From: Candidatus Methylomirabilis sp.
Lineage (GTDB): Bacteria; Methylomirabilota; Methylomirabilia; Methylomirabilales; Methylomirabilaceae
Assembly: GCA_041498975.1 (NCBI GenBank)
Contig: JBGQJI010000039.1
Span: 1 to 17,280, forward strand
Direction: 5' to 3'
DNA: 17,280 bases
Position 1 is the stretch's first letter. Every line of letters starts with the position of its first letter. Made by a program: the position numbers and the translations under genes. The notes beneath the pieces are model-generated. The model made no database searches, was not told the origin of the DNA, and worked only from the letters and a program-made list of their open reading frames with translations. This document shows positions 3,514 to 17,280 of the stretch, one piece after another.

Positions 3514-3759
3514 TCAATGGACAAGAGTCAAGCGTTTGATCCGTCTTTCCAGGAATCGTTGAATCCGATTCCGCGCGTCAGGGGAGATCTCCTTACAGGG
3601 CAGAGTTCGGAGGGCCTCGATGCTCTTCCGGTATGTCTCAAAGAAGGCCACGCAATCTCTGCAATCGAGGAGGTGCCTGCCCCAGGCCAACTTCGTCTGG
3701 GAGTCAAGCGATCCGGATAGATACTCGACGATCAGGGCGGTCACCCCTCGACAATTCAT
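3514..3759 (-). CDS. Soluble zinc-finger (zf-HC2/ZAS) anti-sigma factor, copy 2
   Basis: C-x25-HLLDCRDC (Cx25HxxxCxxC); no transmembrane segment; GAGG RBS. Confidence 0.88.
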
Positions 3760-3813
3760 TCCGATTCCTCAAGTGGCGTTCGGTGAACGATGAACGTGCC
3801 ACTCTTATCTCAT

Positions 3814-3846
3814 CTAGTTTAGACGTTGCAAAGGACAGAAGGATGC
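3814..3846 (-). promoter_or_regulatory. Putative ECF-sigma promoter upstream of anti-sigma copy 2
   Basis: Minus strand GCATCCTTCTGTCCTTTGCAACGTCTAAACTAG; intergenic; matches 3459-3491. Confidence 0.65.
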
Positions 3847-3880
3847 GCGCTGGTGAGGAAAGCGAGGAGAGTCGAGGGGG

Positions 3881-4189
3881 TTAACCGCCGCTCGGGTATC
3901 CCTGGATTCTGGAACGGAGGAACTGTCGGAGCCGTGTCCGCATTTCCGGAGGGATAGACCGATACGCCAAAAATCGGGTCGCCTGGATCGTTTTCTGGTA
4001 GGTGCTCAAGAAGGCGATGCAGTCCGGGCACTTCCGCAAATGCGCCTTGAACGCCAGGGTCGTCTCGGTGGCCAGTTCCCCGGTCACATAGTCCACGATC
4101 AAGCCGGTGACTTGTTGACAGGTGATATCTGTCCTTCTCGGGGTGGGGCGCTGCGCCGAATTTCGCGTGACCATCCTGCGAGGCTTCAT
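3881..4189 (-). CDS. Soluble zinc-finger (zf-HC2/ZAS) anti-sigma factor, copy 1
   Basis: C-x25-HLRKCPDC; directly downstream of the ECF sigma gene. Start uncertain (TTG 4195, ATG 4189 or a later ATG). Confidence 0.88.
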   Translation of the reverse strand: MKPRRMVTRNSAQRPTPRRTDITCQQVTGLIVDYVTGELATETTLAFKAHLRKCPDCIAFLSTYQKTIQATRFLAYRSIPPEMRTRLRQFLRSRIQGYPSGG

Positions 4190-4197
4190 CAACAAGG

Positions 4198-4923
4198 TTA
4201 GGAGGGTGAGTAGCCGAGAGAGACCGCTAACCTCCCCCGAAGGAAAAGGCGAGCGCGGTGGAGCCGCGCCTTGACCGCCGGAATGCTCAGCCCTAAGCCC
4301 TCACAGATCTCGCGATTCGAGAGCCCTTCAAGGTCGCTCATGACGATCACGGCCTTATCCACATGCGGGAGTTGATCGAGAGCCTCGCGGAGGAGCCGCT
4401 GCAGCTCTTTTTTCTCGAGCCGCTGGTCGAGCTCGTCCTCCCAATTGACCACCGGCCTCACCTTATGGTGTCCATCCTGCTGGAAACGGGGCAGATAATC
4501 GTCCAGGTAGACCTCGTTTCTCCTCTTTCTCTTGCGAAGCCTGGTAAGGGCCACATTCATCGTGAGGCGGTAGAGCCATGTCGAGAAGGCTGAGTCGCCT
4601 CGGAACGTCCTGATCTTCTCGTAGATCGCCAGGAAGACGTCCTGAACGACCTCTTCCGTCTCCGCCTCGTTTCCGATGAGCCTGAACACCTGCCGGTGGA
4701 CCTGGGCGACATACCGGCGGAAGATCGCATCGAAGGCCTCGTATTCGCCAGCCTTCACCCGGTCGATCAGAAGCCGCTCTTCCTCGTGGGAAATCTGGCT
4801 ACTTGCTCTGGTTGCTCTGGAAGGAAGGACTCCTGTCGATCCTCTCTGGCCCACTGTTGCCACCCTCGCGCCTTTGTCCTGCGGACGCGACCCGATAGCA
4901 CCTACTTCTCGAGAGTTTGGCAT
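4198..4923 (-). CDS. ECF RNA polymerase sigma-70 factor (RpoE/SigW-like)
   Basis: Region 2 EEVVQDVFL..FRGDSAFSTWLYRLTMN; region 4 LDQLP..DLEGLSNREICEGLGLSIPAVKARLHRAR. The start of the ~45-aa N-terminal extension is uncertain. Confidence 0.95.
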   Translation of the reverse strand: MPNSREVGAIGSRPQDKGARVATVGQRGSTGVLPSRATRASSQISHEEERLLIDRVKAGEYEAFDAIFRRYVAQVHRQVFRLIGNEAETEEVVQDVFLAIYEKIRTFRGDSAFSTWLYRLTMNVALTRLRKRKRRNEVYLDDYLPRFQQDGHHKVRPVVNWEDELDQRLEKKELQRLLREALDQLPHVDKAVIVMSDLEGLSNREICEGLGLSIPAVKARLHRARLFLRGRLAVSLGYSPS

Positions 4924-5009
4924 TCCCCTGCTCGTATGTCCTCTTCGATCTTCCTTCGTATGGCCCTAGCCATGTCGCCTTGATGGTTCTCCTCTTTCCC
5001 CTTCGTCTC

Positions 5010-5045
5010 GAGCAGAGGGCCGGACGCGCTACCGGCCCTCTGCTC
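5010..5045. terminator. Perfect 14-bp GC-rich stem-loop (terminator-like or mRNA-stabilising; no U-tract)
   Basis: GAGCAGAGGGCCGG (5010-5023), 8-nt loop, CCGGCCCTCTGCTC (5032-5045); 25 nt downstream of the stop at 5071. Confidence 0.6.
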
Positions 5046-5070
5046 TGACGGCATTACCTCTACGAGCCAC

Positions 5071-5376
5071 TTACTTGCAGAGACCAGGGGCGAATCCGCT
5101 CACGAGCAGCGCGTCAGGGACGCTCGCGCAGTAGTCGCTTGTGGCTTTGTCCATCATCTTGGTCATGGCACCGGCTCTGGCGGAAAGCCTCTGTAGTTCG
5201 GCCTGGATAGACGTGATCTCCGCCTTGAGGGCCATGAGGTCGACCGCAGTCGCCTTCATCATGCCCATGTCGGCGTCCATCTTTTCCGCATTCGCCGGGG
5301 CGACGGAGAATCCGGGCCCCCCGACGGTCAGAACGAGCGCGGCGATCAGTCCTACAATCACCATGGTGCTTGTCAT
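5071..5376 (-). CDS. Small secreted Met-rich hypothetical protein (101 aa)
   Basis: Strong RBS AGGAGGTG before ATG 5376; hydrophobic leader ending A-N-A; mature part has 8 Met in 71 aa, a short coiled-coil-like stretch and 2 C-terminal Cys. Confidence 0.8.
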   Translation of the reverse strand: MTSTMVIVGLIAALVLTVGGPGFSVAPANAEKMDADMGMMKATAVDLMALKAEITSIQAELQRLSARAGAMTKMMDKATSDYCASVPDALLVSGFAPGLCK

Positions 5377-5413
5377 CTTTCTCTCACCTCCTCTCAAGTA
5401 ACATTCTTGGTCC

Positions 5414-5794
5414 TCAGGCGTCAGAGGTACCGGGATGGCGTGAGGCGCACGCCTCGCGAATGGCAGCCAGCAGGGTCTCTCGTGCCAGGGGCTTTTCCAG
5501 GACCCTGAAGGCGCCAGCTTGCAACAACTGATGGGTAGAGTACGCAGAAGCCTGGCTGGCCAGCAGCATGATCGGGGTGTGAGGCGCGACTTCGTTGAGA
5601 AGGGAGAGGGCCGTCACACCGTTGAAGCCGGGCAGGTGCATATCCAGCAAGAGGAGATCATACTCCTCGGCCATGAGGATTCGGACGGCATCTGTCAGGT
5701 TGTCCAGCACTCGCACTTCTATCCCTTCCTTCCTGGCAAAGGAGCTGACTTGCTCGCCATCGTGATAATCGTCGTCCACTACAAGAATCCGCAT
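5414..5794 (-). CDS. Stand-alone response regulator receiver (CheY-like) protein, 126 aa
   Basis: MRILVVDDD, DLLLLDMHLPGFNG (phospho-acceptor Asp), LEKP; GAGG RBS before ATG 5794. Confidence 0.9.
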   Translation of the reverse strand: MRILVVDDDYHDGEQVSSFARKEGIEVRVLDNLTDAVRILMAEEYDLLLLDMHLPGFNGVTALSLLNEVAPHTPIMLLASQASAYSTHQLLQAGAFRVLEKPLARETLLAAIREACASRHPGTSDA

Positions 5795-5844
5795 CGATTC
5801 CTCTTCTGGTCCTCTTCTCGCTGTAAGCAACCGCGACCAGGAGG

Positions 5845-5860
5845 AGCAAGGGGAGTGCCA
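5845..5860 (-). promoter_or_regulatory. Sigma54 (-24/-12) promoter
   Basis: Minus strand TGGCAC-TCCCC-TTGCT matches TGGCAC-N5-TTGCW; about 50 nt upstream of ATG 5794 and next to a sigma54 activator gene. Confidence 0.85.
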
Positions 5861-5935
5861 GGAGGGCTCCGCTATGGAAGTGCCGAATTCCAATGAGTCG
5901 TCCTGCGACGGCGGTAAAACGGGAGGGCCGCCCAG

Positions 5936-5984
5936 TCGGGTGATTAGCCCGAACTTGGCCTTTGCGATCGGGCATGTTGCCGGG
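5936..5984. promoter_or_regulatory. Candidate tandem enhancer (UAS) for the adjacent sigma54 activator
   Basis: Palindrome TCGGG-N7-CCCGA (5936-5952) and related TCGGGCATGTTGCCGGG (5968-5984); centres 32 bp apart and about 85-115 bp upstream of the -24 box. Confidence 0.5.
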
Positions 5985-5993
5985 CCGGTCTGC

Positions 5994-7349
5994 CTAGGCG
6001 AGGTATTCTTCGGGGCGTATCTGGTAGGCGAGAACCTTGCGGTAGAGGGTCTTGGGGTCGATGCCGAGGATGGCGGCGGCCTTTCCCCGATGGCCTTTCA
6101 CCTGCTGAAGAACGTCCACGATATGCTTCCGTTCCAATGCGTCAAGTCGGCGGGGCGTCGGTCCCCCCGTCTGGATGCCGGCCTGGATGTCGAGAGGCAG
6201 ATCTTGTCCCTCGATTGCCTCTCCGGGTGCCAGCATCAGGGCGCGCTGGATCACGTGCTTGAGTTCCCGAACATTGCCCGGCCAGCTATACTGCACCAGG
6301 GCGTTGGCCGCTTCCTCAGACAGTCGCATCGGCGAAAAAGGCGGGCGATCGGCGAGAAAGTGGTCGGCAAGCAACAGGATATCCTCAGGCCGCTCCCGCA
6401 AGGGCGGAAGGGTGATGGAGACTGAATTGATCCGATAGAAAAGATCCTGTCGGAACTGTCCCTGGCGGACCGCTTCGGCCAGGTCCTTATTCGTCGCGCT
6501 CACGACCCGGACATCCACCTGCCGGGGCTGGGTTCCCCCCACGCGATAGAACGACTGGGTTTCAAGCGCCCTGAGCAGTTTCACCTGGCTTTCGAGCGGC
6601 ATCTCGCCGATCTCGTCCAGAAAGACTGTCCCCTTATCGGCCATCTCGAAGAGGCCCGGCTTTGTGGCGTGCGCGCCGGTGAAGGCGCCCCGCTCGTGGC
6701 CGAAGAGCTCGCTTTCCAGGATTTCCCGGTGGAGCCCCCCGCAGTGGATGGCGACGAACGGGCCAGCCTTCCTGGGCGACCGTCCATGCAGGGCCCTGGC
6801 CACCAGTTCCTTGCCGGTGCCGCTCTCTCCGAGAATCAGGACCGAGGAGTCGGTCGGGGCGGCGCGGTTGATCAGCTTCAGCACCTCTAACATCTTGGGG
6901 CTTTGAGTGATCAGGCCGGACCACTCCTCGGTCGTCTGCAGCTTCGCACGGAGAAGGAGATTCTCACTGGAGAGACGCCGCTTTTCGAACGCCTTTCGGA
7001 CGAGGAGGTCCAGCTTCTCGATCTTGCACGGTTTGGTCACGTAATCGTACGCTCCCAGCTTGACCGCCTCGATGGCTGTGGGGACGCTGCCGAACCCGGT
7101 CATGACGATGATCTCCGGTGAATCAGGCCGTTCCTTCAACCGGCGCATCACCTCGATGCCGTCCAGGCCCGGCATCTTGAGATCGAGCAGGACGATATCT
7201 GCTACGTTGTCCTGCAAGAGCTCCAGCGCCTCTGCACCGTCTTTGGCGGCGCCGGTCTGGTGCCCACGTCGCTCCAACTCGCGGACCAGCACCTTCCGAA
7301 AGTTCGGTTCATCGTCAACCACCAGCACTCGGATCGGATGTGGCTCCAT
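5994..7349 (-). CDS. NtrC/ZraR/AtoC-family sigma54-dependent response regulator (REC-AAA+-HTH), 451 aa
   Basis: RVLVVDDE...LLDLKMP receiver; GESGTGKE, ESELFGHERGAFTGA, FLDEIGE, FRQDLFYR, WPGNVREL; Fis-type HTH AAAILGIDPKTLYRK. Start ATG 7349 follows a GAGGAG RBS. Confidence 0.96.
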   Translation of the reverse strand: MEPHPIRVLVVDDEPNFRKVLVRELERRGHQTGAAKDGAEALELLQDNVADIVLLDLKMPGLDGIEVMRRLKERPDSPEIIVMTGFGSVPTAIEAVKLGAYDYVTKPCKIEKLDLLVRKAFEKRRLSSENLLLRAKLQTTEEWSGLITQSPKMLEVLKLINRAAPTDSSVLILGESGTGKELVARALHGRSPRKAGPFVAIHCGGLHREILESELFGHERGAFTGAHATKPGLFEMADKGTVFLDEIGEMPLESQVKLLRALETQSFYRVGGTQPRQVDVRVVSATNKDLAEAVRQGQFRQDLFYRINSVSITLPPLRERPEDILLLADHFLADRPPFSPMRLSEEAANALVQYSWPGNVRELKHVIQRALMLAPGEAIEGQDLPLDIQAGIQTGGPTPRRLDALERKHIVDVLQQVKGHRGKAAAILGIDPKTLYRKVLAYQIRPEEYLA

Positions 7350-7357
7350 GCGGCTCC

Positions 7358-10300
7358 TCAGGCAACCTCGTGGGACATGGGGAGGATCACTCGGAATAGG
7401 GTTCCCCGTCCCACCTCTGATTCGACCTCGATCCGCCCCCCATGCTCTGTCACAATCCCCTGGCAGATGGCCAGCCCCAGCCCGGTCCCACGCTGTTCGC
7501 CCTTGGTAGTGAAGAACGGCTCGAAGATCTTTCCGAGGAGTTCCGGAGGAATGCCACAGCCCTGGTCCTCGAACTCGATGATGACCTCGCTGCCCGTCTG
7601 GGTGGGACGCTCCCGCGTCCGCACCGTCAGACTGCCCTTCCCGCCACACGCCTCCAGCGCGTTGACTGCCAGGGCCAGGAAGACCTGGCGCAATCTGTTC
7701 AGGTTGGCCCGGAGCATTGGGAGGTCAGGGGTTAGGTCGAGCTGGAGCTCGAGACCGCTGAATCGGGACTGGTGGGAGGTTAGCTCCAACGATTTTTGCA
7801 GGAGATGATTGATGTCGGTTGGCTCACGATCGGCGGTCTCGGCGCGAACGAACTGGAGAAGTCCCCCGGTGATTTCTTTACACCGGTACGCCTCTTCCTC
7901 GATCACGGCGAGGTATTCGGGAAAGTCCTGGAACTCCGGCTTGGCTCGAAGCGATGGGTGGGAAGCCCTATCCAACAGGCCCTCGGCACAGCCGGCGATC
8001 GTGGCCACGGGATTGTTGATTTCGTGCGCGACTCCGGCGGCGAGTTGCCCCAGTGCGGCCAGCTTCTCGGCCTGCAGGAGCTGCCGCTGGATCTTCGCCC
8101 GTTCATCCTCTGCTCGCTGCCGATCTGTGATGTCCCGCGCGATGCTCACGATGACGCGACGTCCACTGAACTCCGCAAGGCGAGCGCTGATACTTAGGGG
8201 GATCAACCGCCCATCCCGGGTACGAAGATTCGTTCCCTCGAAGCTCATGATCGCCACTTTTTCCAAAATCTCCCTGACGATCCCATTGACCTTCGCCCGT
8301 TCTTCTGGAGGGTGGATATCGGGTATCACCATGCTGCGGAGTTCCTCAGCCGAGTACCCCGAGGTGGCGATAGCCTGTCGGTTCGCGTCAAGGATGGCCC
8401 CCGTCTCAGGCTCGATCAGGAAGATCGGATCGTTGGCGCTTTCGAACAGAGTTCGGTATTTCTCCTCGGACGCCTGCAAGGCGCGCTCGAACTGCTTCCG
8501 CTGGGTGATATCCCGGAGGATGGCCATAGAGCCAATCAACGCCCCGTGGACTCCGAGGAGGGGAGAGAGCGTGAGACTGACATCGATGGTCCGACCATCC
8601 TTGTGTCGCCTGACCGTCTCATAGTAGACGGCCTGTCTGCTCTCCATGGCCCGTTCCACCATTGTTCTTGCCTCTTCCCAGAGATCCTCAGGGACGAACG
8701 GCGCCTGCTGCCCGATGACCTCTTCCCTGGACCAGCCCAATATCTGCTCTGCTCCCCGGCTCCACGTCCTGATGGTCAGGTCGGGATCTACGGTGATGAT
8801 GCCGTCGTGGGAGCTTTCGATGACCTGTTCCAGGTACGTCTTCGACTCCATCATCTGGTTATGCAGGCGCGCGTTATCAATCACCACTCCAACCTGACTG
8901 CCGATGGTGGCCAGCAGCTCGATCTCGTCGGGGGAATACTCCCGGGCCCTCTTGCTGGCCAGGATCATCACCCCCAGGATCCGAGATTCAGCGATGAGTG
9001 GGGTGCCCGCGATGGTCTCGATCTGCTCTTGGGAAAGGAATGGGATCAGAAAAGGGATGGGGTGCTCGTGAGCGCGAACGACCACAGGGCGTTTCATCTG
9101 TGCGAGCTGACCCGCTACGCCTTCGCCGGGCTTCAGAGTCTTGATCTGCTCGGCAAGGCTGTCGGAGATGCCCTGATGGTGTTTGACGGTGAGCTGGCCG
9201 TCGGGCCCAATGAGCGAAATGGCGCCTGCCTCGACATCGAAGACCTCGCGCACCTTGGACAGGGTCTCTCGCATCACCTCCTCGAGGTCGAGCGAGCGGC
9301 TCATCGCTTCGGCAATGGCGTTCAGCGTGGCAAGTTGAGCAGTTCGACGCTCTCGTTGGGCGCGGGCCGTCTGGAGACTATCCGCCATCTGGTTGAACGC
9401 GTCGGTGAGCTGGCCGATCTCGTCGGTGGAGGTTCTCTCAATCCGCGCATCGAGTTCTCCCTCACCAATCGCCCTGGCCCCTTTCGCCAAACGCCGTACT
9501 GGCTCGGCAATCCACCTGGAGAGGAGCGCCCCGAGAATGAAGGCGATGCTCAAGGCGGCGGCGATTAAGGACGCGGCCTTTCTGACCTGCACCATGAAGC
9601 TGGCGTGAATGCGAGAGGTCGGAATGCTGACAAGGATCGACCACGGCACCTTCCCCGTAGCGGCAAAGGCGTTGAGCTGAACGGTGCCATCGAAGGAGGG
9701 ACCTTCGACAAAACCGCGATCGCTTCTAACCACCTCCTGAAACAGGGGCAGATCGCGTACCTGCCGGCCGATCCAATCCACGTTGGGCGGGAAGCGCATG
9801 AGAACCGTACCGCGCCGGTCGAGGACGACCATCACTGCGTCGGTCGGCAGCATCAGCCTGCCGAAGGCGTTTTGGAGCCCCTTGAGATCGATCGGCGCAA
9901 CGACGGCGCCAAGGAACCGATCCTCGTTGTCCCGAATAGGATATGCGAGTGCGACGTTCTTGAGGCCGGTCAGTCGTCCGGTGATCAGCTCGCTGATCAC
10001 CAAGCGATGACTGAGCGAGACCTCCTGGAACCAGCGCCGGTCTACGAAAGAGACCCGCCGTCCTTGTTGCGGGCCGATGGCCGCAGCGACCAGCTCACCC
10101 CGGTCATCGACGATAGCCAAGTTCATGAAGTGGGGGAGCTTCGGCTTGAGCCTCTTGACGAGCGGATCGAGCCGTTGTCGATCTTTGGCCTTGACGGCAG
10201 GGGCCTCGGCAAGGGTCATAAGCACGTGCTCGGAGGTGGTGACGAACTCATCGGCGACCGTTGCGCCCGAGGTGGCGAAGCGGAGGGTCTCGAGCTGGAT

Positions 10301-10420
10301 CTTGCTCCGCTCCGCCTGCAACTCGCGGTACGACCAGAAGAGACTCAGGACGAGGAACGGAATCAGGGTCGCCATCATCGAGGCGATCAGTTTTCCTCGG
10401 ATTCCCCAGCGGACCTTCAC
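7358..10420 (-). CDS. Membrane sensor histidine kinase: TM-Cache-TM-HAMP-GAF-PAS-PAS-HisKA-HATPase, about 1020 aa
   Basis: Two hydrophobic segments flank a Cache-like region (DRRWFQEV, GRLTG); HAMP (PVRRLA..DEIGQL); GAF; two PAS domains ending RDIT; H-box AAGVAHEINNP; G boxes DQGCGI, FEPFFTTK, GTGLGL. GTG start at 10420 after GGGAGG. Confidence 0.94.
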   Translation of the reverse strand: MKVRWGIRGKLIASMMATLIPFLVLSLFWSYRELQAERSKIQLETLRFATSGATVADEFVTTSEHVLMTLAEAPAVKAKDRQRLDPLVKRLKPKLPHFMNLAIVDDRGELVAAAIGPQQGRRVSFVDRRWFQEVSLSHRLVISELITGRLTGLKNVALAYPIRDNEDRFLGAVVAPIDLKGLQNAFGRLMLPTDAVMVVLDRRGTVLMRFPPNVDWIGRQVRDLPLFQEVVRSDRGFVEGPSFDGTVQLNAFAATGKVPWSILVSIPTSRIHASFMVQVRKAASLIAAALSIAFILGALLSRWIAEPVRRLAKGARAIGEGELDARIERTSTDEIGQLTDAFNQMADSLQTARAQRERRTAQLATLNAIAEAMSRSLDLEEVMRETLSKVREVFDVEAGAISLIGPDGQLTVKHHQGISDSLAEQIKTLKPGEGVAGQLAQMKRPVVVRAHEHPIPFLIPFLSQEQIETIAGTPLIAESRILGVMILASKRAREYSPDEIELLATIGSQVGVVIDNARLHNQMMESKTYLEQVIESSHDGIITVDPDLTIRTWSRGAEQILGWSREEVIGQQAPFVPEDLWEEARTMVERAMESRQAVYYETVRRHKDGRTIDVSLTLSPLLGVHGALIGSMAILRDITQRKQFERALQASEEKYRTLFESANDPIFLIEPETGAILDANRQAIATSGYSAEELRSMVIPDIHPPEERAKVNGIVREILEKVAIMSFEGTNLRTRDGRLIPLSISARLAEFSGRRVIVSIARDITDRQRAEDERAKIQRQLLQAEKLAALGQLAAGVAHEINNPVATIAGCAEGLLDRASHPSLRAKPEFQDFPEYLAVIEEEAYRCKEITGGLLQFVRAETADREPTDINHLLQKSLELTSHQSRFSGLELQLDLTPDLPMLRANLNRLRQVFLALAVNALEACGGKGSLTVRTRERPTQTGSEVIIEFEDQGCGIPPELLGKIFEPFFTTKGEQRGTGLGLAICQGIVTEHGGRIEVESEVGRGTLFRVILPMSHEVA

Positions 10421-10457
10421 GGCGCGTGATTCCTCCCGTCCGTTTCGACTGCAGGCC

Positions 10458-10486
10458 GCGTCCATCATGCCACAAGGCCCATGCCA
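10458..10486 (-). promoter_or_regulatory. Possible sigma54-type promoter(s) of the kinase operon
   Basis: Minus strand TGGCATGGGCCTTGT (10486-10472, GT at -12) and TGGCATGATGGACGC (10472-10458, GG-N10-GC); both imperfect. Confidence 0.35.
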
Positions 10487-10558
10487 AGGCAAGCGGAAGG
10501 CCCTGGAAGCCAGCGGCATCCGCGGGTTCCGGGGCTTCGAACGGGCAAGGTAAAGGAC

Positions 10559-10587
10559 TTGACGATTGCGCGCGGTGATGGTATAAG
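10559..10587 (+). promoter_or_regulatory. Sigma70-type promoter of the tol-pal operon
   Basis: TTGACG (10559-10564), 17-nt spacer, TATAAG (10582-10587), preceded by TG (extended -10). Confidence 0.7.
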
Positions 10588-10608
10588 CTGAACTCAAGGA
10601 CCTATGAC

Positions 10609-11328
10609 ATGAATGTCGTGAGCCTGATTGCACAAGCGGGGATCATCGCTAAAGGGGTGCTGCTCATCCTGCTCTTCTTCTCCTTGATGAGCTGGACGCT
10701 CATCTTCATGAAGTTCCGGACGTTCCGGCGAGGCCAACAGGAGTCGGCTCGCTTTCTGCAGATCTTCCGATCGGCAAAAAACCTCTATACGACCTTTGAA
10801 GAGTCGAAGCGATTTGGCAAAAGTCCCATCGCCGTCGTGTTTCAGGAAGGCTACCGAGAGCTCAGCCACCTTGTGAAGGGAAACCCGGGGCCGGGCAACC
10901 CTGGGCCGGTCGCCCAGGAGCCATCGGCGAGGGCGCCCGAAATGGCCATTCATAAGGAGCCGCTCGAACTCATCAGCCGAACGCTGCGCCATGCCAGCAT
11001 GAAGGAGGTCTCCCAGCAGGAACGCAACCTGATCTTCCTGGCGACCACAGGCAACGTGACGCCATTCATCGGTCTCTTCGGGACGGTGTGGGGAATCATG
11101 GATGCCTTCGCGAGCATTGGCCAAGCGGGCTCCGCGAACCTGGGCGCGGTGGCCCCGGGTATCTCGGAGGCCCTGATCACCACCGCGGCCGGGCTGGGTG
11201 CCGCCATCCCTGCGGTCATCGCGTACAACTACTTCGTGAACAAGATCAAGCGGCAGGTCACTGAAATGGAATTGTTCGGTCTCGAGTTTCTCGCCTTGGC
11301 CGAGCGGATCCTGGCGAGGAGTCGGTGA
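10609..11328 (+). CDS. tolQ: TolQ (MotA/TolQ/ExbB proton channel)
   Basis: PFIGLFGTVWGIM, VAPGISEALITTAAGL, AIPAVIAYN; first gene of the tol-pal cluster. Confidence 0.93.
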   Translation: MNVVSLIAQAGIIAKGVLLILLFFSLMSWTLIFMKFRTFRRGQQESARFLQIFRSAKNLYTTFEESKRFGKSPIAVVFQEGYRELSHLVKGNPGPGNPGPVAQEPSARAPEMAIHKEPLELISRTLRHASMKEVSQQERNLIFLATTGNVTPFIGLFGTVWGIMDAFASIGQAGSANLGAVAPGISEALITTAAGLGAAIPAVIAYNYFVNKIKRQVTEMELFGLEFLALAERILARSR

Positions 11329-11771
11329 TGGCGATGGCCTCGTTCAGCGTGGGATCGGATCAGCGCCCCGGAGGCACCGCGCTTTCCGAGATCAATGTGA
11401 CCCCGTTCGTGGATGTGGTATTGGTGCTCCTTATCATCTTCCTCATCACGGCGCCGATGATGCTCAGGGGGATCGATGTCAAGGTCCCAAAGACGGAAAC
11501 GAAGAACGTCGGGCCTGAGGAGCGGTTAATGCTGACGGTCACCAAGGACAGAGCCATCTACCTGGATGATCAACCGATCACCATGGCGCGACTGGAGCGG
11601 GTCCTGACGGGGCTTCGGCAGCGCAACCCGAAGGCCGCCGTCTTCCTTCGGGCGGATGAGGGGGTAGCCTACGGCGTTGTCGTGAAGGTCATGGACGCGG
11701 TGAAGAAGGCCGGCATCGAGCGTCTGGGAATGGTGACCGAACCGATCGTCCCCGGGGCGGAGGGGAGATAG
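11328..11771 (+). CDS. tolR: TolR (ExbD/TolR family)
   Basis: SEINVTPFVDVVLVLLIIF, LRADEGVAYGVVVKVM; start overlaps the tolQ stop. Confidence 0.93.
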   Translation: MAMASFSVGSDQRPGGTALSEINVTPFVDVVLVLLIIFLITAPMMLRGIDVKVPKTETKNVGPEERLMLTVTKDRAIYLDDQPITMARLERVLTGLRQRNPKAAVFLRADEGVAYGVVVKVMDAVKKAGIERLGMVTEPIVPGAEGR

Positions 11772-11775
11772 CGGC

Positions 11776-12939
11776 TTGGTGGGAGCGATCGAGCGGCGCC
11801 TTCCATGGCCGGACGTGTCGTACCCGGCCGGTCTCTCATTTCTGCTCCATGGACTCTTGATGGTTGCCGTCATGTATGCCCCCCAGTGGCTTCGCCACAC
11901 GCCCTTCAAAGTGCCGGTCAGTTACGAAGTGACGCTCGTGGCTCCACCCGGGGGAGGCGGCCAGGCAAGGGCGCGCCTTTCTCCTCCCGCAGGGGCAAAG
12001 GCGGCTGCTCCGGCTCCCCAGGCGGCGCAGCCCAGGGACCTGCTTACGCTGCCGTCGACATCACGGCCCGTCATCCCGCAGACGCCGGTTGCCTCGCAGA
12101 CGCCCGTCATCCCGCAAGCCCCGTCCATCCCTCAGACGGTGGTGAGACCCCTGTCTCCTCCGACTCGAACCGATGAGATGACCCTGTCAACCAAGCGCCC
12201 ATTGCCCGAGCGCCGGGCCCCCGCCCCGCTGGTGCCACCGCCTGCCCCTCCGGCGATCGTCGCGCCGAAGTCAGCCCCGCCCATCGCCCAGATCGTTCCG
12301 CCCGCCGTCGCGCTGCCTCCACCATTGTCCGTCGTGAAACCCGCGCCCCTGCGGAGCGTCCAGCCTGCCCCGCCGGCTCCCATCCTCACCACGCCGGTTG
12401 TCGTGGCGCCCCGGGTTGCTCCGCCGCCCGCCATCTCCCAGCCTGTGATCAGGCCGCCCGCCTTGACGCTTCCGAAAGTGACGCTTGGAACAGGCAAAGA
12501 GGCTCGACTTGAAGCCAAGGCCGTGAAGCCCGCTGCTGTGGCTCCTCCGGCGATCACCGCGCCTGCAATCGAGACCGAGGGCCAATCTGGTGCCGGTGTA
12601 GGGATCGGGGTGGGCACGGAGACCGGAGTGACAGTTGGGAATACCGATCCGGCGCTGGCGTATTATATCGTCCTGATCCAGGATAAGATCGAAGGGAACT
12701 GGACCCCTCCAAAGATGAGCCCCGGCACCATGGCCAGCGTCGTCCTCTCTCTCAGGATTTTCCGCTCCGGGCAGGTTCGGGACATGGCCGTCGATTCGTC
12801 ATCGGAGGACCGGCTGCTTGACGACTCGGCCCTTCGGGCTGTCCGCCTCTCGACCCCGCTCCCGCCGCTGCCTCCGCTGTATAAGGCCGAGACGCTCTTT
12901 CTGAGAATCCGTTTCAACTTTGAGGGAGTCAAGAGTTGA
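11776..12939 (+). CDS. tolA: TolA/TonB-family energy transducer with a Pro-rich linker
   Basis: N-terminal TM with SxxxH (LSFLLHGLL); long Pro/Ala/Val linker; C-terminal TolA/TonB-like domain (YY..IQDKIEGNWTPP..LLDDSALRAV); lies between tolR and tolB. Confidence 0.82.
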   Translation: MVGAIERRLPWPDVSYPAGLSFLLHGLLMVAVMYAPQWLRHTPFKVPVSYEVTLVAPPGGGGQARARLSPPAGAKAAAPAPQAAQPRDLLTLPSTSRPVIPQTPVASQTPVIPQAPSIPQTVVRPLSPPTRTDEMTLSTKRPLPERRAPAPLVPPPAPPAIVAPKSAPPIAQIVPPAVALPPPLSVVKPAPLRSVQPAPPAPILTTPVVVAPRVAPPPAISQPVIRPPALTLPKVTLGTGKEARLEAKAVKPAAVAPPAITAPAIETEGQSGAGVGIGVGTETGVTVGNTDPALAYYIVLIQDKIEGNWTPPKMSPGTMASVVLSLRIFRSGQVRDMAVDSSSEDRLLDDSALRAVRLSTPLPPLPPLYKAETLFLRIRFNFEGVKS

Positions 12940-14270
12940 TGCGATCGGGCCGTCGCGGCAGTGGCGCCAGCGTTCTGCTCGCCCTGGTCCTGACCCTCAC
13001 TGCCTTCCCCCTCGGAGCCGAGTCTGCCGAGGAAAAATTTACGATAGACATCTATAGGAAGGAAGCGCAGAAGATCGCGATCGCGGTCGTGGGCTTTCCG
13101 TCCTTCAGATTCGGCCTCAAGGCCGAGGACCTCGGTATGCAGGCAGGCGGCATTCTGAGCGATGATCTGAAGAATTCCGGGATCTTCGATGTCATCGAAC
13201 CGTCGTTCCTCCCGTTCGAGGCGACGCAGGTTGGGCTTGGCCAGGAAAAGGGGATACTGCCGGCACTGAATTCCCTCAAGGTCCAGGCCCTGGTGGTCGG
13301 CAAGCTCTCGCCCCGTGGGAGCGAGCTCATGTTGGAAGGCCAGCTCTTCGAGGTCAAGCGCGGCGAGATGCTTTCGGGAAAGCGATACGTGGGGGATGTC
13401 CGCACCCTGCGGACGATGGTGCACCGCCTGGCGGACGAGATCGTCTACCGGCTTACGGGGGACAAGGGGGTCGCGTCGTCAAGGATCGCCTACGTCTCCT
13501 CTGTGGATGGCGCGAAAGAGATCTACGTCATGGACTACGACGGGTACAACCCGGTCCTCATCACCGGGAACCGTTCGATCAACCTCTCCCCACGATGGTC
13601 TCCTGACGGCAAGAAGATCGCCTATACGTCCTATCGCGATCAGAACCCGGATCTCTTCGTGGTCAATCTGGAGACCGGGCGGCGTCAGAAGATCTCGTCC
13701 AGCCCTGGCCTCAACATTGCCCCCGGCTGGTCTCCGGACGGGCAATGGCTCGCCTTTTCCATGAGCAGCGGCATGGGCACCAACCTCTTTCTCACCAATC
13801 CAGACGGGACCGGTCTCCGTCCGCTCACGGTCGGCCCGAATATCAATGTCTCCCCGTCCTTCTCTCCGAACGGGCGGCAAATCGCGTTCAACTCGGACCG
13901 CGGTGGCACGCCCCAGATCTATGTGATGGACGTCGAGGGGGCCAACCTCCGTCGCCTCACCTTCGGCGTGGGAGACTACAGCGTCTCGCCCCGATGGTCC
14001 CCGCGCGGGGACAAGATCGCCTTCGTCGGGAGGCTGCGCGGGAACTTCGATATCTTCTTGATCAACCCTGACGGCACGGGGCTGGTGCAGTTGACGTCGA
14101 ACTCAGGCAATAACGAGGAGCCATCATGGTCTCCTGACGGTCGCCACCTCGTCTTCACATCGACGCGAAACGGGCGCCGCAGCCTGTATGTGATGAAGGC
14201 TGATGGGACGAATATGCGACAAGTGACCAAGAACGGAAAGGAAAATTACCTCGCCGACTGGTCGCCGTAG
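12939..14270 (+). CDS. tolB: TolB beta-propeller protein
   Basis: Signal peptide; TolB_N (VHRLADEI); repeated PD40 blades (SPRWSPDGKKIAY, PGWSPDG, PSFSPNG, PSWSPDG); ends in WSP. Confidence 0.96.
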   Translation: MRSGRRGSGASVLLALVLTLTAFPLGAESAEEKFTIDIYRKEAQKIAIAVVGFPSFRFGLKAEDLGMQAGGILSDDLKNSGIFDVIEPSFLPFEATQVGLGQEKGILPALNSLKVQALVVGKLSPRGSELMLEGQLFEVKRGEMLSGKRYVGDVRTLRTMVHRLADEIVYRLTGDKGVASSRIAYVSSVDGAKEIYVMDYDGYNPVLITGNRSINLSPRWSPDGKKIAYTSYRDQNPDLFVVNLETGRRQKISSSPGLNIAPGWSPDGQWLAFSMSSGMGTNLFLTNPDGTGLRPLTVGPNINVSPSFSPNGRQIAFNSDRGGTPQIYVMDVEGANLRRLTFGVGDYSVSPRWSPRGDKIAFVGRLRGNFDIFLINPDGTGLVQLTSNSGNNEEPSWSPDGRHLVFTSTRNGRRSLYVMKADGTNMRQVTKNGKENYLADWSP

Positions 14271-14375
14271 TGCAGGCACGCCAGCAGTCCCCTGGCGACA
14301 TGCCGAAGGCAACAGCGGCGAGGTTAGCGGGATGTTGTGGGAGGCATCATTGGGGAGGATAAGGAGGAATTGGAG

Positions 14376-15482
14376 ATGAAGCAGGTGTGGCGGCCATGGA
14401 CCGGTTCCACCATCACACTACTACTCGTGTCAGTGTTTCTGACTGGGTGCCCGAAGCGGCCGGAGATTGCGGAGACCGCTCCGAAGGCGATCGGACCGCA
14501 GGGTGCGATTTCGATGCCGGCGCCCCCACCCTCTCCGCCAACGGTGAGCGCTGTCCCGCCGACGGTTCCAGCTCCGGAAGAGAAGTCCCCCGCTGAGGTC
14601 ACCGCCCAGCCTGGTGAATCCGAGGCTGCTCTGGAGGGAAAGGTCCAGGAGGCGGAGACGCCGCCCGCTGGCGGACAGGCCTACCAGGAACCCATGACGC
14701 CGCCCACCCAGGAGGCTCAAGCTGCGCCAGAGGCCGGTGCGGCGCCGGAACCTCAAGCCCCCCAACCAACGGAGGGTGAGATAAAGCCGCAGAGGCAGGT
14801 CGGAGAGGGCGAGGTCAAGCCTGAAGGCCAGGCCAAGGAGGCTGGGGCGAAGCCTGAAACATCCGCGGCTGTGACTGAACCCGAGGTGAAGCCGGAGCCG
14901 CCGGCGCCGATCGCCGAGGCTGAGGTGAAACCGGAGACACCGCCAGCGGTCAAGGAGGCGGAGGCCACACCCGGAGCCGAGGTGGGGGCTCCTCCAGAAG
15001 TCGTTTCTCCCCCCGCAGGCCAGCCTTCCGCAGAAGCCGTGTCACCCGCTGCTCCTGCCGAGCCTGTCGCTCCTGCCCCGGTCCCCACGCCTCAATCGCC
15101 GCCACCTGCGCCGCCCGCGGTAGCAGAAGCGCCCAAGGCGGTCGAGCTGACCGTCAAAGATATCTACTTCGACTTCGATCAGGCCGCTATCCGAGACGAC
15201 TCGAGGAAAACATTGGCCGATAACATCCAGTGGTTCAAGGCGAACCCAGCAGCCAAAGTGACGCTCGAGGGTCACTGCGACGAGCGTGGGTCCAGTGAGT
15301 ACAACCTTGCGCTTGGGGAGCGTCGCGCCAGGGTGACGCGGGATTTCCTGGTGGTTGCCGGAATCGAGGCGAGCCGAATCAACACCATCAGTTTCGGGAA
15401 GGAACGCCCGTTCGTTCTCGGGCACGACGAATCGGCGTGGAAGTGGAATCGGCGGGCCCATTTCGTCGTGAGCCCGAAATAG
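14376..15482 (+). CDS. pal: Peptidoglycan-associated lipoprotein Pal with a ~230-aa Pro/Glu/Ala-rich linker (368 aa)
   Basis: AAGGAGG RBS; lipobox FLTG-C at residue 25; C-terminal OmpA domain [38 protein letters not shown]. Confidence 0.93.
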
Positions 15483-15558
15483 CGGTAGCCAACTGGTGTC
15501 CTGAGTCGGAAAATCGCGCGAGAAGATTCCCCCGCCCCCTTGACTCCGGTCTATACAG

Positions 15559-15624
15559 CGGGAGAGAGGGTGCGGGTGAGGGGGTCTTCGCGCAAACAGC
15601 GCCCTCACCCAGAGGGAGAGGGGT
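15559..15624. repeat. Degenerate BoxC/REP-like purine-pyrimidine palindromic element
   Basis: GGGAGAGAGGG..GGGTGAGGG (15574-15582) pairs with CCCTCACCC (15602-15610), followed by GAGGGAGAGGGG; single copy in the window. Confidence 0.5.
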
Positions 15625-15664
15625 CAGGATGAGACGAGGTCCGTGTACAGCGTAGAGAGGTGGG

Positions 15665-17280
15665 ATGGCTGACTATTGGGAAAAGGTCGTAAGCGTTGGC
15701 TCCTCCATCGCGGTTGCCGCCACCCTGGCTGTCTTGACGATGGGGTGTGAGGGGGACAGGCCCATTCGCCTGGTCCAGCGCGATGTCGATTCGGTGAAGA
15801 GCGAGGTGGCGGCAGTCTCCAGGACAAGCGAAGGCTCACGGGTGTTCGCTGAGGAGAAGATCAACAAGCTCGAAGCGGAGCTCAAGGGTCGGCTGGAGCG
15901 GAGCGAGAATGCCCGGATCGCCCTCCTTGGCCGGGTGGAACGGGAGGAGCGCTCGCGGGCGGCCCTGGAAGAGAGGCTCGGAAAGACCGAGGCCGACCTC
16001 AAGGGCCGGCTGGACCGGAGTGAGAGCGCCAGGATCACCCTCCAGGAGAGGTTGGAACGCAGCGAGCGCGCGCGGGCGGCCCTTGAGGAAAGGCTTGCGA
16101 AGACGGAGTCGGACCTCAAGAGCCAGGTAGCGAAGACGGACACCGACCTGAAGAGCCGCCAGGAGAAGGCAGAAACCGAACTCAAGAACCAGGTCGCGAA
16201 GGCGGACGCAGATCTCAAAGGCCAGTTGGCAAAGATGGATCAGGATTTCAAAGGCCAGGTCGCGAAGGCGGCTCAGGAAAGGAAGGCCGACGTCCAGGGG
16301 TTCCTTTCATCGCAGGCCAATCTGGACACGAAGCTGGACGAGCTGACCACTGAGATGCGCTTGGTGCAAGGGCGATCCGAGGAGATAGGTCACGGCATCT
16401 CGGAGCTGAACAGACATGTCGATGGCCTGGGCGATCAAGTCAGTCAGTTCGGACGGCGATTGGATGGATTTGAGAAGCAGGTCGCTCAGGCCGTGGCAGC
16501 GGCGCAGGAGGCGAAGGTCACGGCCCAGGAGGCAAAGGGCACAAGCGAGAGGGCTGCTGCAGCCGCCCAGGATGCTACAGCCGTATCCCAGCAGGCGGCC
16601 GCCGCCTCGCAGCAGACGGCTCAGCAGGTGTCAGCCACTGGCCAGCAGACCGCGCAGCAAGTGACGGCCGCCCTCCAGCAGACGGCCCAGCAGGCGTCCG
16701 CCGCCACCCAGCAAACCGCGGAGCAGATGACGGCCGCCCTCCAGCAGACGGCCGATCAGACCAATGCCGCAATTCAGCAGCTTCACAAGGCTGTCGAACA
16801 GGCATTGGCCGAGGCCGCGAAGGCGACCACCACGGCGCAGCAGGCGGGGTCCACCGCTCAACAGGCCGTGGATATGGCCCAGCAGGGAGTGGCGGCGTCT
16901 CAGCAGACGGCCCGGCAGGTGACGGCTGCTCTGCAGCAGACGGCCCAGCAGACCAACACCGCGATCCAGCAGGTCAACACGACTGCACAGCTTGCCCTGA
17001 CTGAGGCCCGAAAGGCGGCCAGCATCAGGCCCGCGCAAGCCGCTCCACCGACCCCCGCGGCGACGCAGGCTCCGCCGCCCGCGGCCCAGATCGTGCCTCC
17101 CAAGGTGGTCGCGCCAGCGTCGCCGGCGCCTCCGCCAGCTCCGGCTCCCGCGGAACCGGCGTCGTCCTCTCCTCCGACGTCCCTCCCGCCCGCGGCCCAG
17201 ATCGTGCCTCCCAAGGTGGTCGCGCCAGCGTCGCCGGCGCCTCCGCCAGCTCCGGCTCCCGCGGAACCGACGGCATCTTC
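15665..17280 (+). CDS. cpoB: Probable CpoB/YbgF-like lipoprotein with a very long repeat coiled coil (at least 538 aa, 3' end outside the window)
   Basis: Manually translated open frame from ATG 15665 to the window end with no stop: MADYWEKVVSVGSSIAVAATLAVLTMG-C lipobox-like leader; LDELTTEMRLVQGRSEE resembles the YbgF trimerisation segment; immediately follows pal. The TPR domain is not visible, so the symbol rests largely on synteny. Confidence 0.7.
   Translation, partial: MADYWEKVVSVGSSIAVAATLAVLTMGCEGDRPIRLVQRDVDSVKSEVAAVSRTSEGSRVFAEEKINKLEAELKGRLERSENARIALLGRVEREERSRAALEERLGKTEADLKGRLDRSESARITLQERLERSERARAALEERLAKTESDLKSQVAKTDTDLKSRQEKAETELKNQVAKADADLKGQLAKMDQDFKGQVAKAAQERKADVQGFLSSQANLDTKLDELTTEMRLVQGRSEEIGHGISELNRHVDGLGDQVSQFGRRLDGFEKQVAQAVAAAQEAKVTAQEAKGTSERAAAAAQDATAVSQQAAAASQQTAQQVSATGQQTAQQVTAALQQTAQQASAATQQTAEQMTAALQQTADQTNAAIQQLHKAVEQALAEAAKATTTAQQAGSTAQQAVDMAQQGVAASQQTARQVTAALQQTAQQTNTAIQQVNTTAQLALTEARKAASIRPAQAAPPTPAATQAPPPAAQIVPPKVVAPASPAPPPAPAPAEPASSSPPTSLPPAAQIVPPKVVAPASPAPPPAPAPAEPTAS
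17075..17269 (+). repeat. Intragenic direct repeat, 2 x 84 bp identical, period 111 bp
   Basis: 17075-17158 equals 17186-17269, encoding PPAAQIVPPKVVAPASPAPPPAPAPAEP. Confidence 0.95.

Follow-up and report, generated by a model that had tools for sequence, protein, structure and literature searches.

The window, as we call the whole 17,280-nt stretch of Candidatus Methylomirabilis sp. DNA analysed here (contig JBGQJI010000039.1), ends inside a long open reading frame (ORF) that directly follows pal of a tol-pal operon. We conclude that this ORF is most probably (at roughly 80%) the cpoB (ybgF) gene of the Methylomirabilota tol-pal operon, in a repeat-expanded form that belongs to one subclade. 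Compared with that of its relatives, the helical stalk of the encoded protein appears to be about doubled by internal repeats, and sequence comparison indicates that TolA, Pal and CpoB are co-expanded in the same clade of six loci.

An earlier reading of the same DNA (the original prediction) had proposed a giant CpoB-like lipoprotein missed by the ORF track. The ORF is indeed present (15665-17278), with an ATG at 15665 and 538 aa up to the window end; it was listed solely when open-ended ORFs were requested and was therefore missed. Its assignment to cpoB has also held up, as the gene lies directly after pal, its relatives are named YbgF, and complete orthologues carry a YbgF tetratricopeptide repeat (TPR) region that scores above cut-off.

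Identity of the gene and its orthologues

A scan of GTDB species genomes yielded 97 matching stretches, 13 of which were confirmed as loci (L001-L013). Eleven of these are titled Methylomirabilis or Methylomirabilota, in agreement with the lineage guessed at in the original prediction, one is titled 'uncultured bacterium' and one 'Patescibacteria group'. Gene order in the related loci was tolQRAB-pal-cpoB-DUF2127-leuB(-), and a pal match directly preceded the cpoB match in 11 of the 13. The locus titled 'Patescibacteria group bacterium' (L012, DATMXF010000210.1) shows a Methylomirabilis-type tolB-pal-cpoB-DUF2127-leuB arrangement and a TolB 84% identical to that of the window; this contig is probably mis-binned.

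Five loci (L001-L005) matched the window protein over most of its length, with 56-76% identity. Three of them contain complete genes, with ORFs of 689 aa (L002), 694 aa (L001) and 643 aa (L005), corresponding to 630, 635 and 584 aa from the lipobox Cys. All three finish in the same ELYKNALNDY...RLSQVR TPR region. With TIGR02795 (cut-off 90.1) this region scored 109.3 bits in L002 and 103.6 bits in L005, and L001 shares the same TPR sequence. The orthologues align with window residues 9-532 and then run on into the YbgF TPR domain, and therefore the missing 3' end of the window gene very probably encodes a TPR domain as well. By comparison with the orthologues, the full window gene is expected to encode ~690-720 aa, of which ~150-180 residues would be missing. 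The statement that at least 538 aa precede any TPR proved correct, given that a Pfam search of the 538 aa returned no family at E≤0.01, TPR included. An NCBIfam scan of the same residues returned SMC, a spurious coiled-coil match (19.3 bits against a cut-off of 567) that was rejected.

The nearest relatives of the window gene, L003 and L004 (76% identity), lie on contigs that end inside the gene (at 3614 and 4838, respectively), the contig of L001 begins 60 nt before the cpoB gene, and the window likewise stops inside the gene at 17280. That the gene is cut in L003, L004 and the window suggests that short-read assemblies probably break here and that the gene is likely to be under-annotated.

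Relatives were also sought in protein collections. In a word-indexed search of 5.8 billion proteins, 48 of the 8000 scored candidates were homologues, all of them 298-453 aa long, and 47 of the 48 carried Pfam TPR families. Twelve bore names: ten 'tol-pal system protein YbgF' (Methylomirabilis or NC10), one 'tetratricopeptide repeat protein' and one 'BamD' (M. lanthanidiphila). An exhaustive HMMER pass over 1.84 billion representatives gave 30 clusters at E≤0.001 and no complete long form; three matches were longer than 500 aa, all of them weak (E 1e-6 to 5e-5, 26-30% identity). The long form was absent from both of these collections. When the TPR region of L002 was used as query, 61 proteins matched, the best 53 of which were 381-501 aa long; there was no long form among the matched proteins, and L002's own protein was not there either. 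That there are so few matches in the protein collections argues for a narrow, lineage-restricted stalk module. This particular CpoB/YbgF lipoprotein family appears to occur almost only in Methylomirabilota (NC10) within the searched data, with usual members of 380-450 aa. Its family profile matched the solved YbgF/CpoB TPR structures 2xev (1.6e-27) and 6g5s (8.9e-24).

In the CpoB tree the long forms grouped together, with support of 93/93 and 100/98 for two halves and 82/64 for their union. A second family member, of 421 aa (L010:4223-5488 and L011:4236-5519), was found in the same metagenome-assembled genomes (MAGs) as L003 and L004. It lies away from tol-pal, beside a DEAD-box helicase and zinc dehydrogenases, and scored 117.3 bits with TIGR02795; its clade (support 100/99) is sister to the long forms (100/100). 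Because the same pair occurs in two independent MAGs, true paralogy is favoured over bin contamination. The original prediction was to be abandoned if no TPR followed and a normal cpoB stood elsewhere. The genomes of L003 and L004 do appear to hold a short family member, yet the prediction survives it because the long form keeps its TPR in the orthologues.

Layout and geometry of the stalk

The visible part of the gene is arranged as follows.

15665 to 17280, + strand: cpoB/ybgF, long lipoprotein form, open to the window end without a stop, 538 aa seen
15665 to 15748, + strand: signal peptide and lipobox (residues 1-28, LTMG-C28)
15749 to 15871, + strand: conserved head (residues 29-69, CEGD..VQRDVDS..) with invariant or near-invariant columns
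15872 to 16105, + strand: pair of 39-aa repeats rich in E/R (residues 70-147), the first insertion compared with short forms
16106 to 16270, + strand: five 11-aa repeats of the DLKxQVAKxDx type (residues 148-202)
16271 to 16534, + strand: conserved core (residues 203-290), where conservation of the stalk is highest; rich in Gly near IGHG; heptad periodicity
16535 to 17014, + strand: helical half rich in Q/A/T and bearing 11-aa repeats (residues 291-450), second insertion
17015 to 17280, + strand: Pro/Ala-rich linker (residues 451-538), with 31 P and 26 A among 88 residues

The N-terminus reads MADYWEKVVSVGSSIAVAATLAVLTMG-C28 and, judged by eye, agrees with the PROSITE-style lipobox rule [LVI]-x-[GAS]-C within the first 35 residues. 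The lipobox-like TMG-C noticed at first reads L-T-M-G-C in full. All 54 family members in the alignment have this Cys28, and L24, G27, E29, G30 and D31 were at least 90% conserved. The C-E-G-D that stands right after the lipidated Cys is likewise conserved to at least 90% across the family, which is unusual for a mere tether, and it may be a membrane-sorting or recognition signal.

The repeats listed in the original prediction were recovered. Tandem Repeats Finder (TRF) returned the 39-aa duplication with a period of 117 nt (15881-16124, 2.1 copies, 78% matches, score 297), the peptides starting at residues 73 and 112; two heads of the 39-mer were matched in five of the six long-form loci and one in L005. 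The five quoted 11-mers read exactly so in the translation, and TRF placed their 33-nt period at 16097-16239 (4.3 copies) and 16189-16278. Their copy number varies among the orthologues, and between four and seven 11-mer cores were matched in the N-terminal half. The second 11-mer family (QQTAQQVTAAL type) forms arrays with a period of 33/66 nt at 16589-16770 and 16876-16951, and the Pro-rich repeats comprise a pair in the linker (17075-17169 and 17186-17280) that is 96% identical. Copies of the helical repeats share 62-83% DNA identity among themselves; because they have diverged this far, we regard them as old duplications and not as products of the assembler.

Residues 35-450 contain no proline. 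The original prediction described the protein as made of hendecad coiled-coil repeats. Peaks in the hydrophobicity spectrum lay at 3.68 (11/3) for residues 148-203, at 3.50 for the core (204-290) and at 3.59 for residues 291-450; a hendecad therefore fits the inserted repeats only, the core being heptad-like and the C-terminal half, like the stalk as a whole, mixed.

Alignment with the short forms revealed three insertions, at residues ~70-203 (39-aa and 11-aa repeats), at ~290-410 (Q/A/T-rich 11-mers) and in the proline linker. The two helical insertions are of unrelated repeat families and similar size, and they flank the most conserved stretch of the stalk, where invariant columns run from F213 to Q275. 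We measured the two stalk halves from motif to motif (QRDVD to IGHG and IGHG to EARK) in the 62 of 73 sequences that matched; the other 11 were dropped. In short forms the first half had 81-101 residues (n=56) and the second 74-103 (n=53 measurable). The long forms had first and second halves of 170/159 (L005), 181/195 (L001), 181/199 (L002) and 203/206 (window), and a first half only was obtained for L003 (181) and L004 (203). Length variants step by 7 (74, 81, 88, 95, 102) or by 11 (170, 181, 203), and from these steps we conclude that the helical phase is kept. As a rough figure, the window stalk is some six times longer than the coiled-coil domain of E. coli CpoB.

AlphaFold2 (AF2), run with a 54-row alignment, predicted helices at residues 37-252, 270-391 and 397-453 of the window protein followed by a disordered tail, at a mean predicted local distance difference test (pLDDT) score of 69.1; values reached at least 90 at about residues 61-190 and were low at 241-270. 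For the short form of M. lanthanidiphila (P0046) it predicted helices at 49-149 and 160-212 and a disordered linker, and the TPR domain was modelled with confidence (pLDDT 94-98). The window protein would accordingly consist, in the model, of ~415 proline-free helical residues and a disordered Pro/Ala linker. At 0.15 nm per helical residue, a straight stalk would measure ~60 nm, and one that folds back at the core ~30 nm. Foldseek, run with the AF2 model on the PDB, returned a single match of no significance (E 7.1), and the best ESM Atlas scores for residues 29-453 (0.83) were below the meaningful level.

We considered whether the stalk is an antiparallel helical hairpin, with the Gly-rich core (~236-270) as its distal tip and the anchor and the Pro-linker-TPR part at the same membrane-proximal end. 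Its reach would then be ~30 nm (~200 residues per arm), and the conserved tip would meet a partner at the far side. The question is one of geometry alone, and a hairpin would fit the CpoB assignment. The arrangement of the insertions, different in sequence family, similar in size and placed on either side of the most conserved segment, is what a hairpin would lead one to expect. Across the four long forms that are complete or nearly so, both halves lengthen together (170/159, 181/195, 181/199, 203/206), and the length steps preserve helix phase in short forms (74-102, one half) and in long forms (170, 181, 203, the other half). The AF2 confidence dips at 241-270, and in chemoreceptor hairpins, too, insertions occur symmetrically in the two arms. 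Against this, the helix break in the AF2 model comes after the IGHG motif (253-269), and by that break the helices of P0046 are unequal (49-149 and 160-212). The predicted template modelling (pTM) scores were only 0.27 for the window protein and 0.40 for P0046, Foldseek gave no antiparallel coiled-coil match, and the correlation between the halves rests on four long forms, all of them related. A complex prediction of residues 35-241 with 245-453, run without controls, scored 0.00 against a mark of 0.32, gave neither support nor counter-evidence, and says nothing either way on the hairpin. Taken together, we hold the hairpin to be possible, at somewhat less than even odds.

Lengthening of TolA and Pal alongside CpoB

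The genes tolQ-tolR-tolA-tolB-pal occupy the right-hand third of the window on the + strand, directly upstream of the cpoB ORF.

10609 to 11328, + strand: tolQ, 239 aa; PF01618 at 5e-37; TIGR02796 212.7 bits, slightly below the cut-off of 221
11325 to 11771, + strand: tolR, 148 aa; PF02472 at 4e-31; TIGR02801 116.6 bits (cut-off 127.3)
11776 to 12939, + strand: tolA, 387 aa; TonB_2 / TonB_C C-terminal domain; TIGR02794 (tolA_full) 32.6 bits (cut-off 59.45), so named by operon position
12936 to 14270, + strand: tolB, 444 aa; TIGR02800 413.6 bits (cut-off 343)
14337 to 15482, + strand: pal; TIGR02802 (Pal_lipo) 134.4 bits (cut-off 125.35) at residues 276-377
15483 to 15664, no strand: pal-cpoB spacer, 182 nt, with a Shine-Dalgarno-like GAGAGGTGGG ahead of the cpoB ATG

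The true start of pal is probably the ATG at 14376. Pal of the window has a lipobox (FLTGC), a mature length of 344 aa and a P/E/A/K-rich linker of ~235-240 aa ahead of its OmpA-like domain. The original prediction held that Pal was expanded alongside CpoB; its linker is indeed longer than in the short-form loci, and TolA is lengthened too. Mature Pal has 344 aa in the window, 332 in L004, 325 in L003, 318 in L002 and 304 in L005, compared with 181-192 aa in six short-form loci. According to the alignment, the surplus of ~110-160 aa is P/E/A/K-rich linker before an unchanged OmpA-like domain. For TolA the lengths were 387 aa (window), 375 aa (L002) and 364 aa (L005), compared with 285 aa in L006 and 273 aa in both L009 and L013; here the surplus over the short-form clade is ~80-110 aa of proline-rich sequence in domain II. 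TolQ (239 aa), TolR (148 aa), TolB (~444 aa), DUF2127 and LeuB are of unchanged length in the relatives and align over their full extent. The order L005 < L002 < window applies to TolA, to Pal and to both CpoB stalk halves. Pal ranks as L003 < L004 < window; the first stalk half is shorter in L003 (181) than in L004 and the window (203 each).

Several features of the surrounding sequence were recorded as well. The proline-rich domain II of TolA in the window is not helical and includes the short tandem IPQTPVASQTPVIPQAPSIPQ, and the Pal linker contains EVKPE-like repeats. The pal-cpoB spacer holds a G-rich 14-nt tandem, GCGGGAGAGAGGGT, in two copies (15558-15585); a promoter and terminator scan of the window found in this spacer neither a promoter-like site nor a + strand terminator-like site, and Rfam and tRNA scans of the window gave no relevant match. 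No ybgC was seen upstream of tolQ in the window. Divergent from tolQ, positions 3514-10633 of the minus strand form a regulatory block with a histidine kinase of 1091 aa (dCache-HAMP-GAF-PAS-PAS; 7358-10633), a sigma-54 activator that carries a receiver domain (5994-7649), a stand-alone receiver (5414-5893), an extracytoplasmic function (ECF) sigma factor (4198-4923) and two zf-HC2 anti-sigma-like ORFs (3881-4195 and 3514-3759). To the left of this block lie genes for a glycogen debranching enzyme, an aquaporin and MsrB.

These features can be joined in a proposed mechanism. CpoB would be exported by Sec, lipidated at Cys28 and tethered to a membrane, probably to the inner leaflet of the outer membrane. 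Its helical stalk would act as a spacer, and by analogy with E. coli CpoB the TPR domain, carried by a flexible linker, could extend to domain II of TolA and to a peptidoglycan synthase. Such reach would couple septal wall synthesis to constriction of the outer membrane. By lengthening in parallel, TolA, Pal and CpoB would match the machine's reach to envelope layers that lie farther or more variably apart, and the whole Tol-Pal machine may be scaled to a larger gap between these layers.

Taken further, one Methylomirabilis subclade would have roughly doubled the periplasmic reach of Tol-Pal (TolA domain II, Pal linker, CpoB stalk and linker) because its outer membrane lies at a much larger or more variable distance from the wall and inner membrane; in CpoB, the stalk would be a balanced two-arm hairpin serving as a molecular ruler, its conserved tip sensing or contacting the far side. 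In this full form the proposal is speculative, and we consider it unlikely. M. lanthanidiphila is described as having a polygonal outer membrane and surface layer (S-layer), whereas the wall and inner membrane are not polygonal (PMC8671808). With the outer membrane polygonal and the wall not, the gap bridged by Tol-Pal would vary around the cell, in M. lanthanidiphila at least.

A number of observations weigh against the assignment to cpoB or against the account built on it. M. lanthanidiphila, the imaged species, has the short form (P0046, 401 aa). Its polygonal shape is attributed to the S-layer in that description (PMC8671808), and the envelope-shaping strut of the original prediction finds no support. 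The unlinked short family member in L010 and L011 sits awkwardly with a simple reading in which everything is longer or the periplasm wider. The long forms make up what is essentially a single clade, so that the co-expansion counts as one evolutionary event or a few. The signal peptide, which was judged by eye, has a weakly charged n-region (MADYWEK), and the C-E-G-D after the cleavage site, if a sorting signal, could point to either membrane. The YbgF-like segment was the weakest item of the original prediction: the trimerisation-domain model PF16331 (TolA_bind_tri) matched residues 215-250 weakly and under cut-off (15.5 bits, E 0.019, cut-off 30.1; 14.7 bits in the short form P0046), and homology to that domain is not established. 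No YbgF coiled-coil structure was among the PDB matches of the profile and core-segment searches (E≤1 or E≤10), the phmmer search of the core segment giving chance-level coiled-coil matches only (E≥0.18). Overall AF2 confidence was low, with the pTM of 0.27 given above. Finally, no TPR appears before the window end, and the C-terminal domain of the window gene is taken from orthologues that are 56-66% identical.

Alternatively, the expansions could be neutral growth of repeats by slippage or unequal recombination that was tolerated, CpoB, TolA and Pal of one lineage sharing a mutational tendency unconnected with the dimensions of the envelope. This would account for repeat copy numbers that differ among close relatives (the four to seven 11-mer cores), for the recent origin that 96% identity gives to the Pro-rich pair at the window end, for the low complexity of every expanded segment and for the restriction of long forms to one clade. 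It accounts less well for the pattern of the expansions, which hit only the spanning or linker parts of three proteins of a single machine, whereas the lengths of TolQ, TolR, TolB, DUF2127 and LeuB were kept. The helical repeats, moreover, are old and have been retained in six assemblies, their insertions are balanced around the core with helical phase preserved, and the three lengths co-vary even inside the long clade. We judge neutral growth to be less likely than not.

A quite different possibility is that the protein is not CpoB, and that a separate stalk lipoprotein of the Lpp/OprI alanine-zipper type, or an apolipoprotein/LEA-like 11-mer membrane binder, merely lies after pal. There are sub-threshold matches to Alanine_zipper PF11839 (19.7 bits, cut-off 23.1) and to LPP, the short form P0002 weakly matches NF040598 (26.6 bits, cut-off 43; L010 18.8 bits), the ESM Atlas search found a 'murein lipoprotein' cluster (score 0.75), and the window shows no TPR. 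However, all Lpp-type matches fell under their cut-offs, and the 11-mers form part of a single continuous helix in the prediction, in which heptad segments occur as well. Above all, the orthologues aligned over residues 9-532 continue into the YbgF TPR domain, which largely refutes an Lpp-like identity, and we regard it as very improbable. That the extra length is an assembly artefact, namely collapsed or duplicated repeats of a short-read metagenome assembly, is more improbable still: the window does end 11 nt past a near-perfect 111-nt-spaced repeat, the contigs of L003 and L004 end in the gene, and that of L001 starts 60 nt ahead of it, but the helical repeats have diverged beyond what assembler loops can make, and the same architecture recurs in diverged form in five other assemblies (56-76% protein identity, three complete genes). 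The near-identical Pro-rich pair at the window end is the only repeat that could be such an artefact. We therefore retain the assignment to cpoB and regard the helical repeats as genuine.

Comparison with known systems

E. coli CpoB, as summarized in passages of PMC7391070, is a soluble 28-kDa protein with a coiled coil and TPRs that binds TolA domain II and PBP1B. Like it, the window gene is the last of a tol-pal operon and encodes an N-terminal helical coiled-coil part, to be followed by a C-terminal three-TPR domain as seen in the orthologues. In contrast to the E. coli protein with its short trimerisation domain, the window protein has a lipoprotein signal, ~415 predicted helical residues and a proline linker of at least 88 aa. 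UB2H, the partner domain in E. coli, and LpoB are reported, in the relevant part of PMC4458516, to be restricted to enterobacteria and Vibrionaceae.

The lipid anchor is shared with other phyla. According to parts of a recent survey (Mol Biol Evol 2025, PMC12204202), lipidation signals occur in 28 of 34 non-proteobacterial CpoBs and in 20% of 70 proteobacterial examples, and the ancestral CpoB is proposed to have been an outer-membrane lipoprotein. The survey assigns such CpoBs to the outer membrane from SignalP results, which by themselves leave the choice of membrane undecided. As with those non-proteobacterial diderms, the window has a lipoprotein CpoB encoded beside tol-pal. Because lipidated CpoB is already the norm outside Proteobacteria (PMC12204202), the anchor is neither new nor unusual. 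The main text of that survey mentions neither Methylomirabilota, NC10 nor coiled coils, and its passages on CpoB do not discuss stalk length or repeat expansion. In the literature library searched, no paper contained both 'Methylomirabil' and 'Tol-Pal'.

The closest comparison is with the short-form CpoB of Methylomirabilota, such as that of M. lanthanidiphila (P0046, annotated 'BamD'). It shares with the window the lipobox, head, core, Q-rich helix, Pro linker and operon position, and with the complete long forms the TPR. It differs in lacking both insertions, in stalk halves of 98/81 compared with 203/206, in the shorter TolA and Pal beside it and in a Pro linker of 69 residues, compared with at least 88 in the window and 117-126 in complete long forms.

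Lipoproteins of the Lpp/OprI alanine-zipper type resemble the window protein in being lipid-anchored, helical coiled-coil spacer stalks of the periplasm, though sequence resemblance is weak. In contrast to them, the window protein stays below the PF11839 and NF040598 cut-offs, is far longer and has orthologues with a TPR effector domain; nor is there a consistent C-terminal Lys, the CpoB orthologues ending in ...QVR or ...QVK. The predatory vesicle lipoprotein of Bdellovibrio (NF053852, Bd0635) also combines a lipoprotein signal with a CpoB-like TPR end. The orthologues show a weak match to its model, with 33.7 and 30.7 bits where the cut-off is 250, and its context and role are reported to be different (PMC10769870).

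The distance between envelope layers in diderms has been studied mainly by artificial lengthening of Lpp in E. coli, as set out in a portion of PMC8824477. The locus offers a natural contrast among close relatives, in which TolA, Pal and CpoB are all short or all long and the globular parts are unchanged. A matching difference in envelope spacing, if true, would be direct comparative evidence for length-matching in a trans-envelope machine, and the clade would then be a natural experiment on how such machines re-scale when envelope spacing changes. What is new relative to the known systems is the expanded CpoB stalk, about twice as long as that of its own relatives, in an operon whose other spanning parts, those of TolA and Pal, appear to have been lengthened with it.

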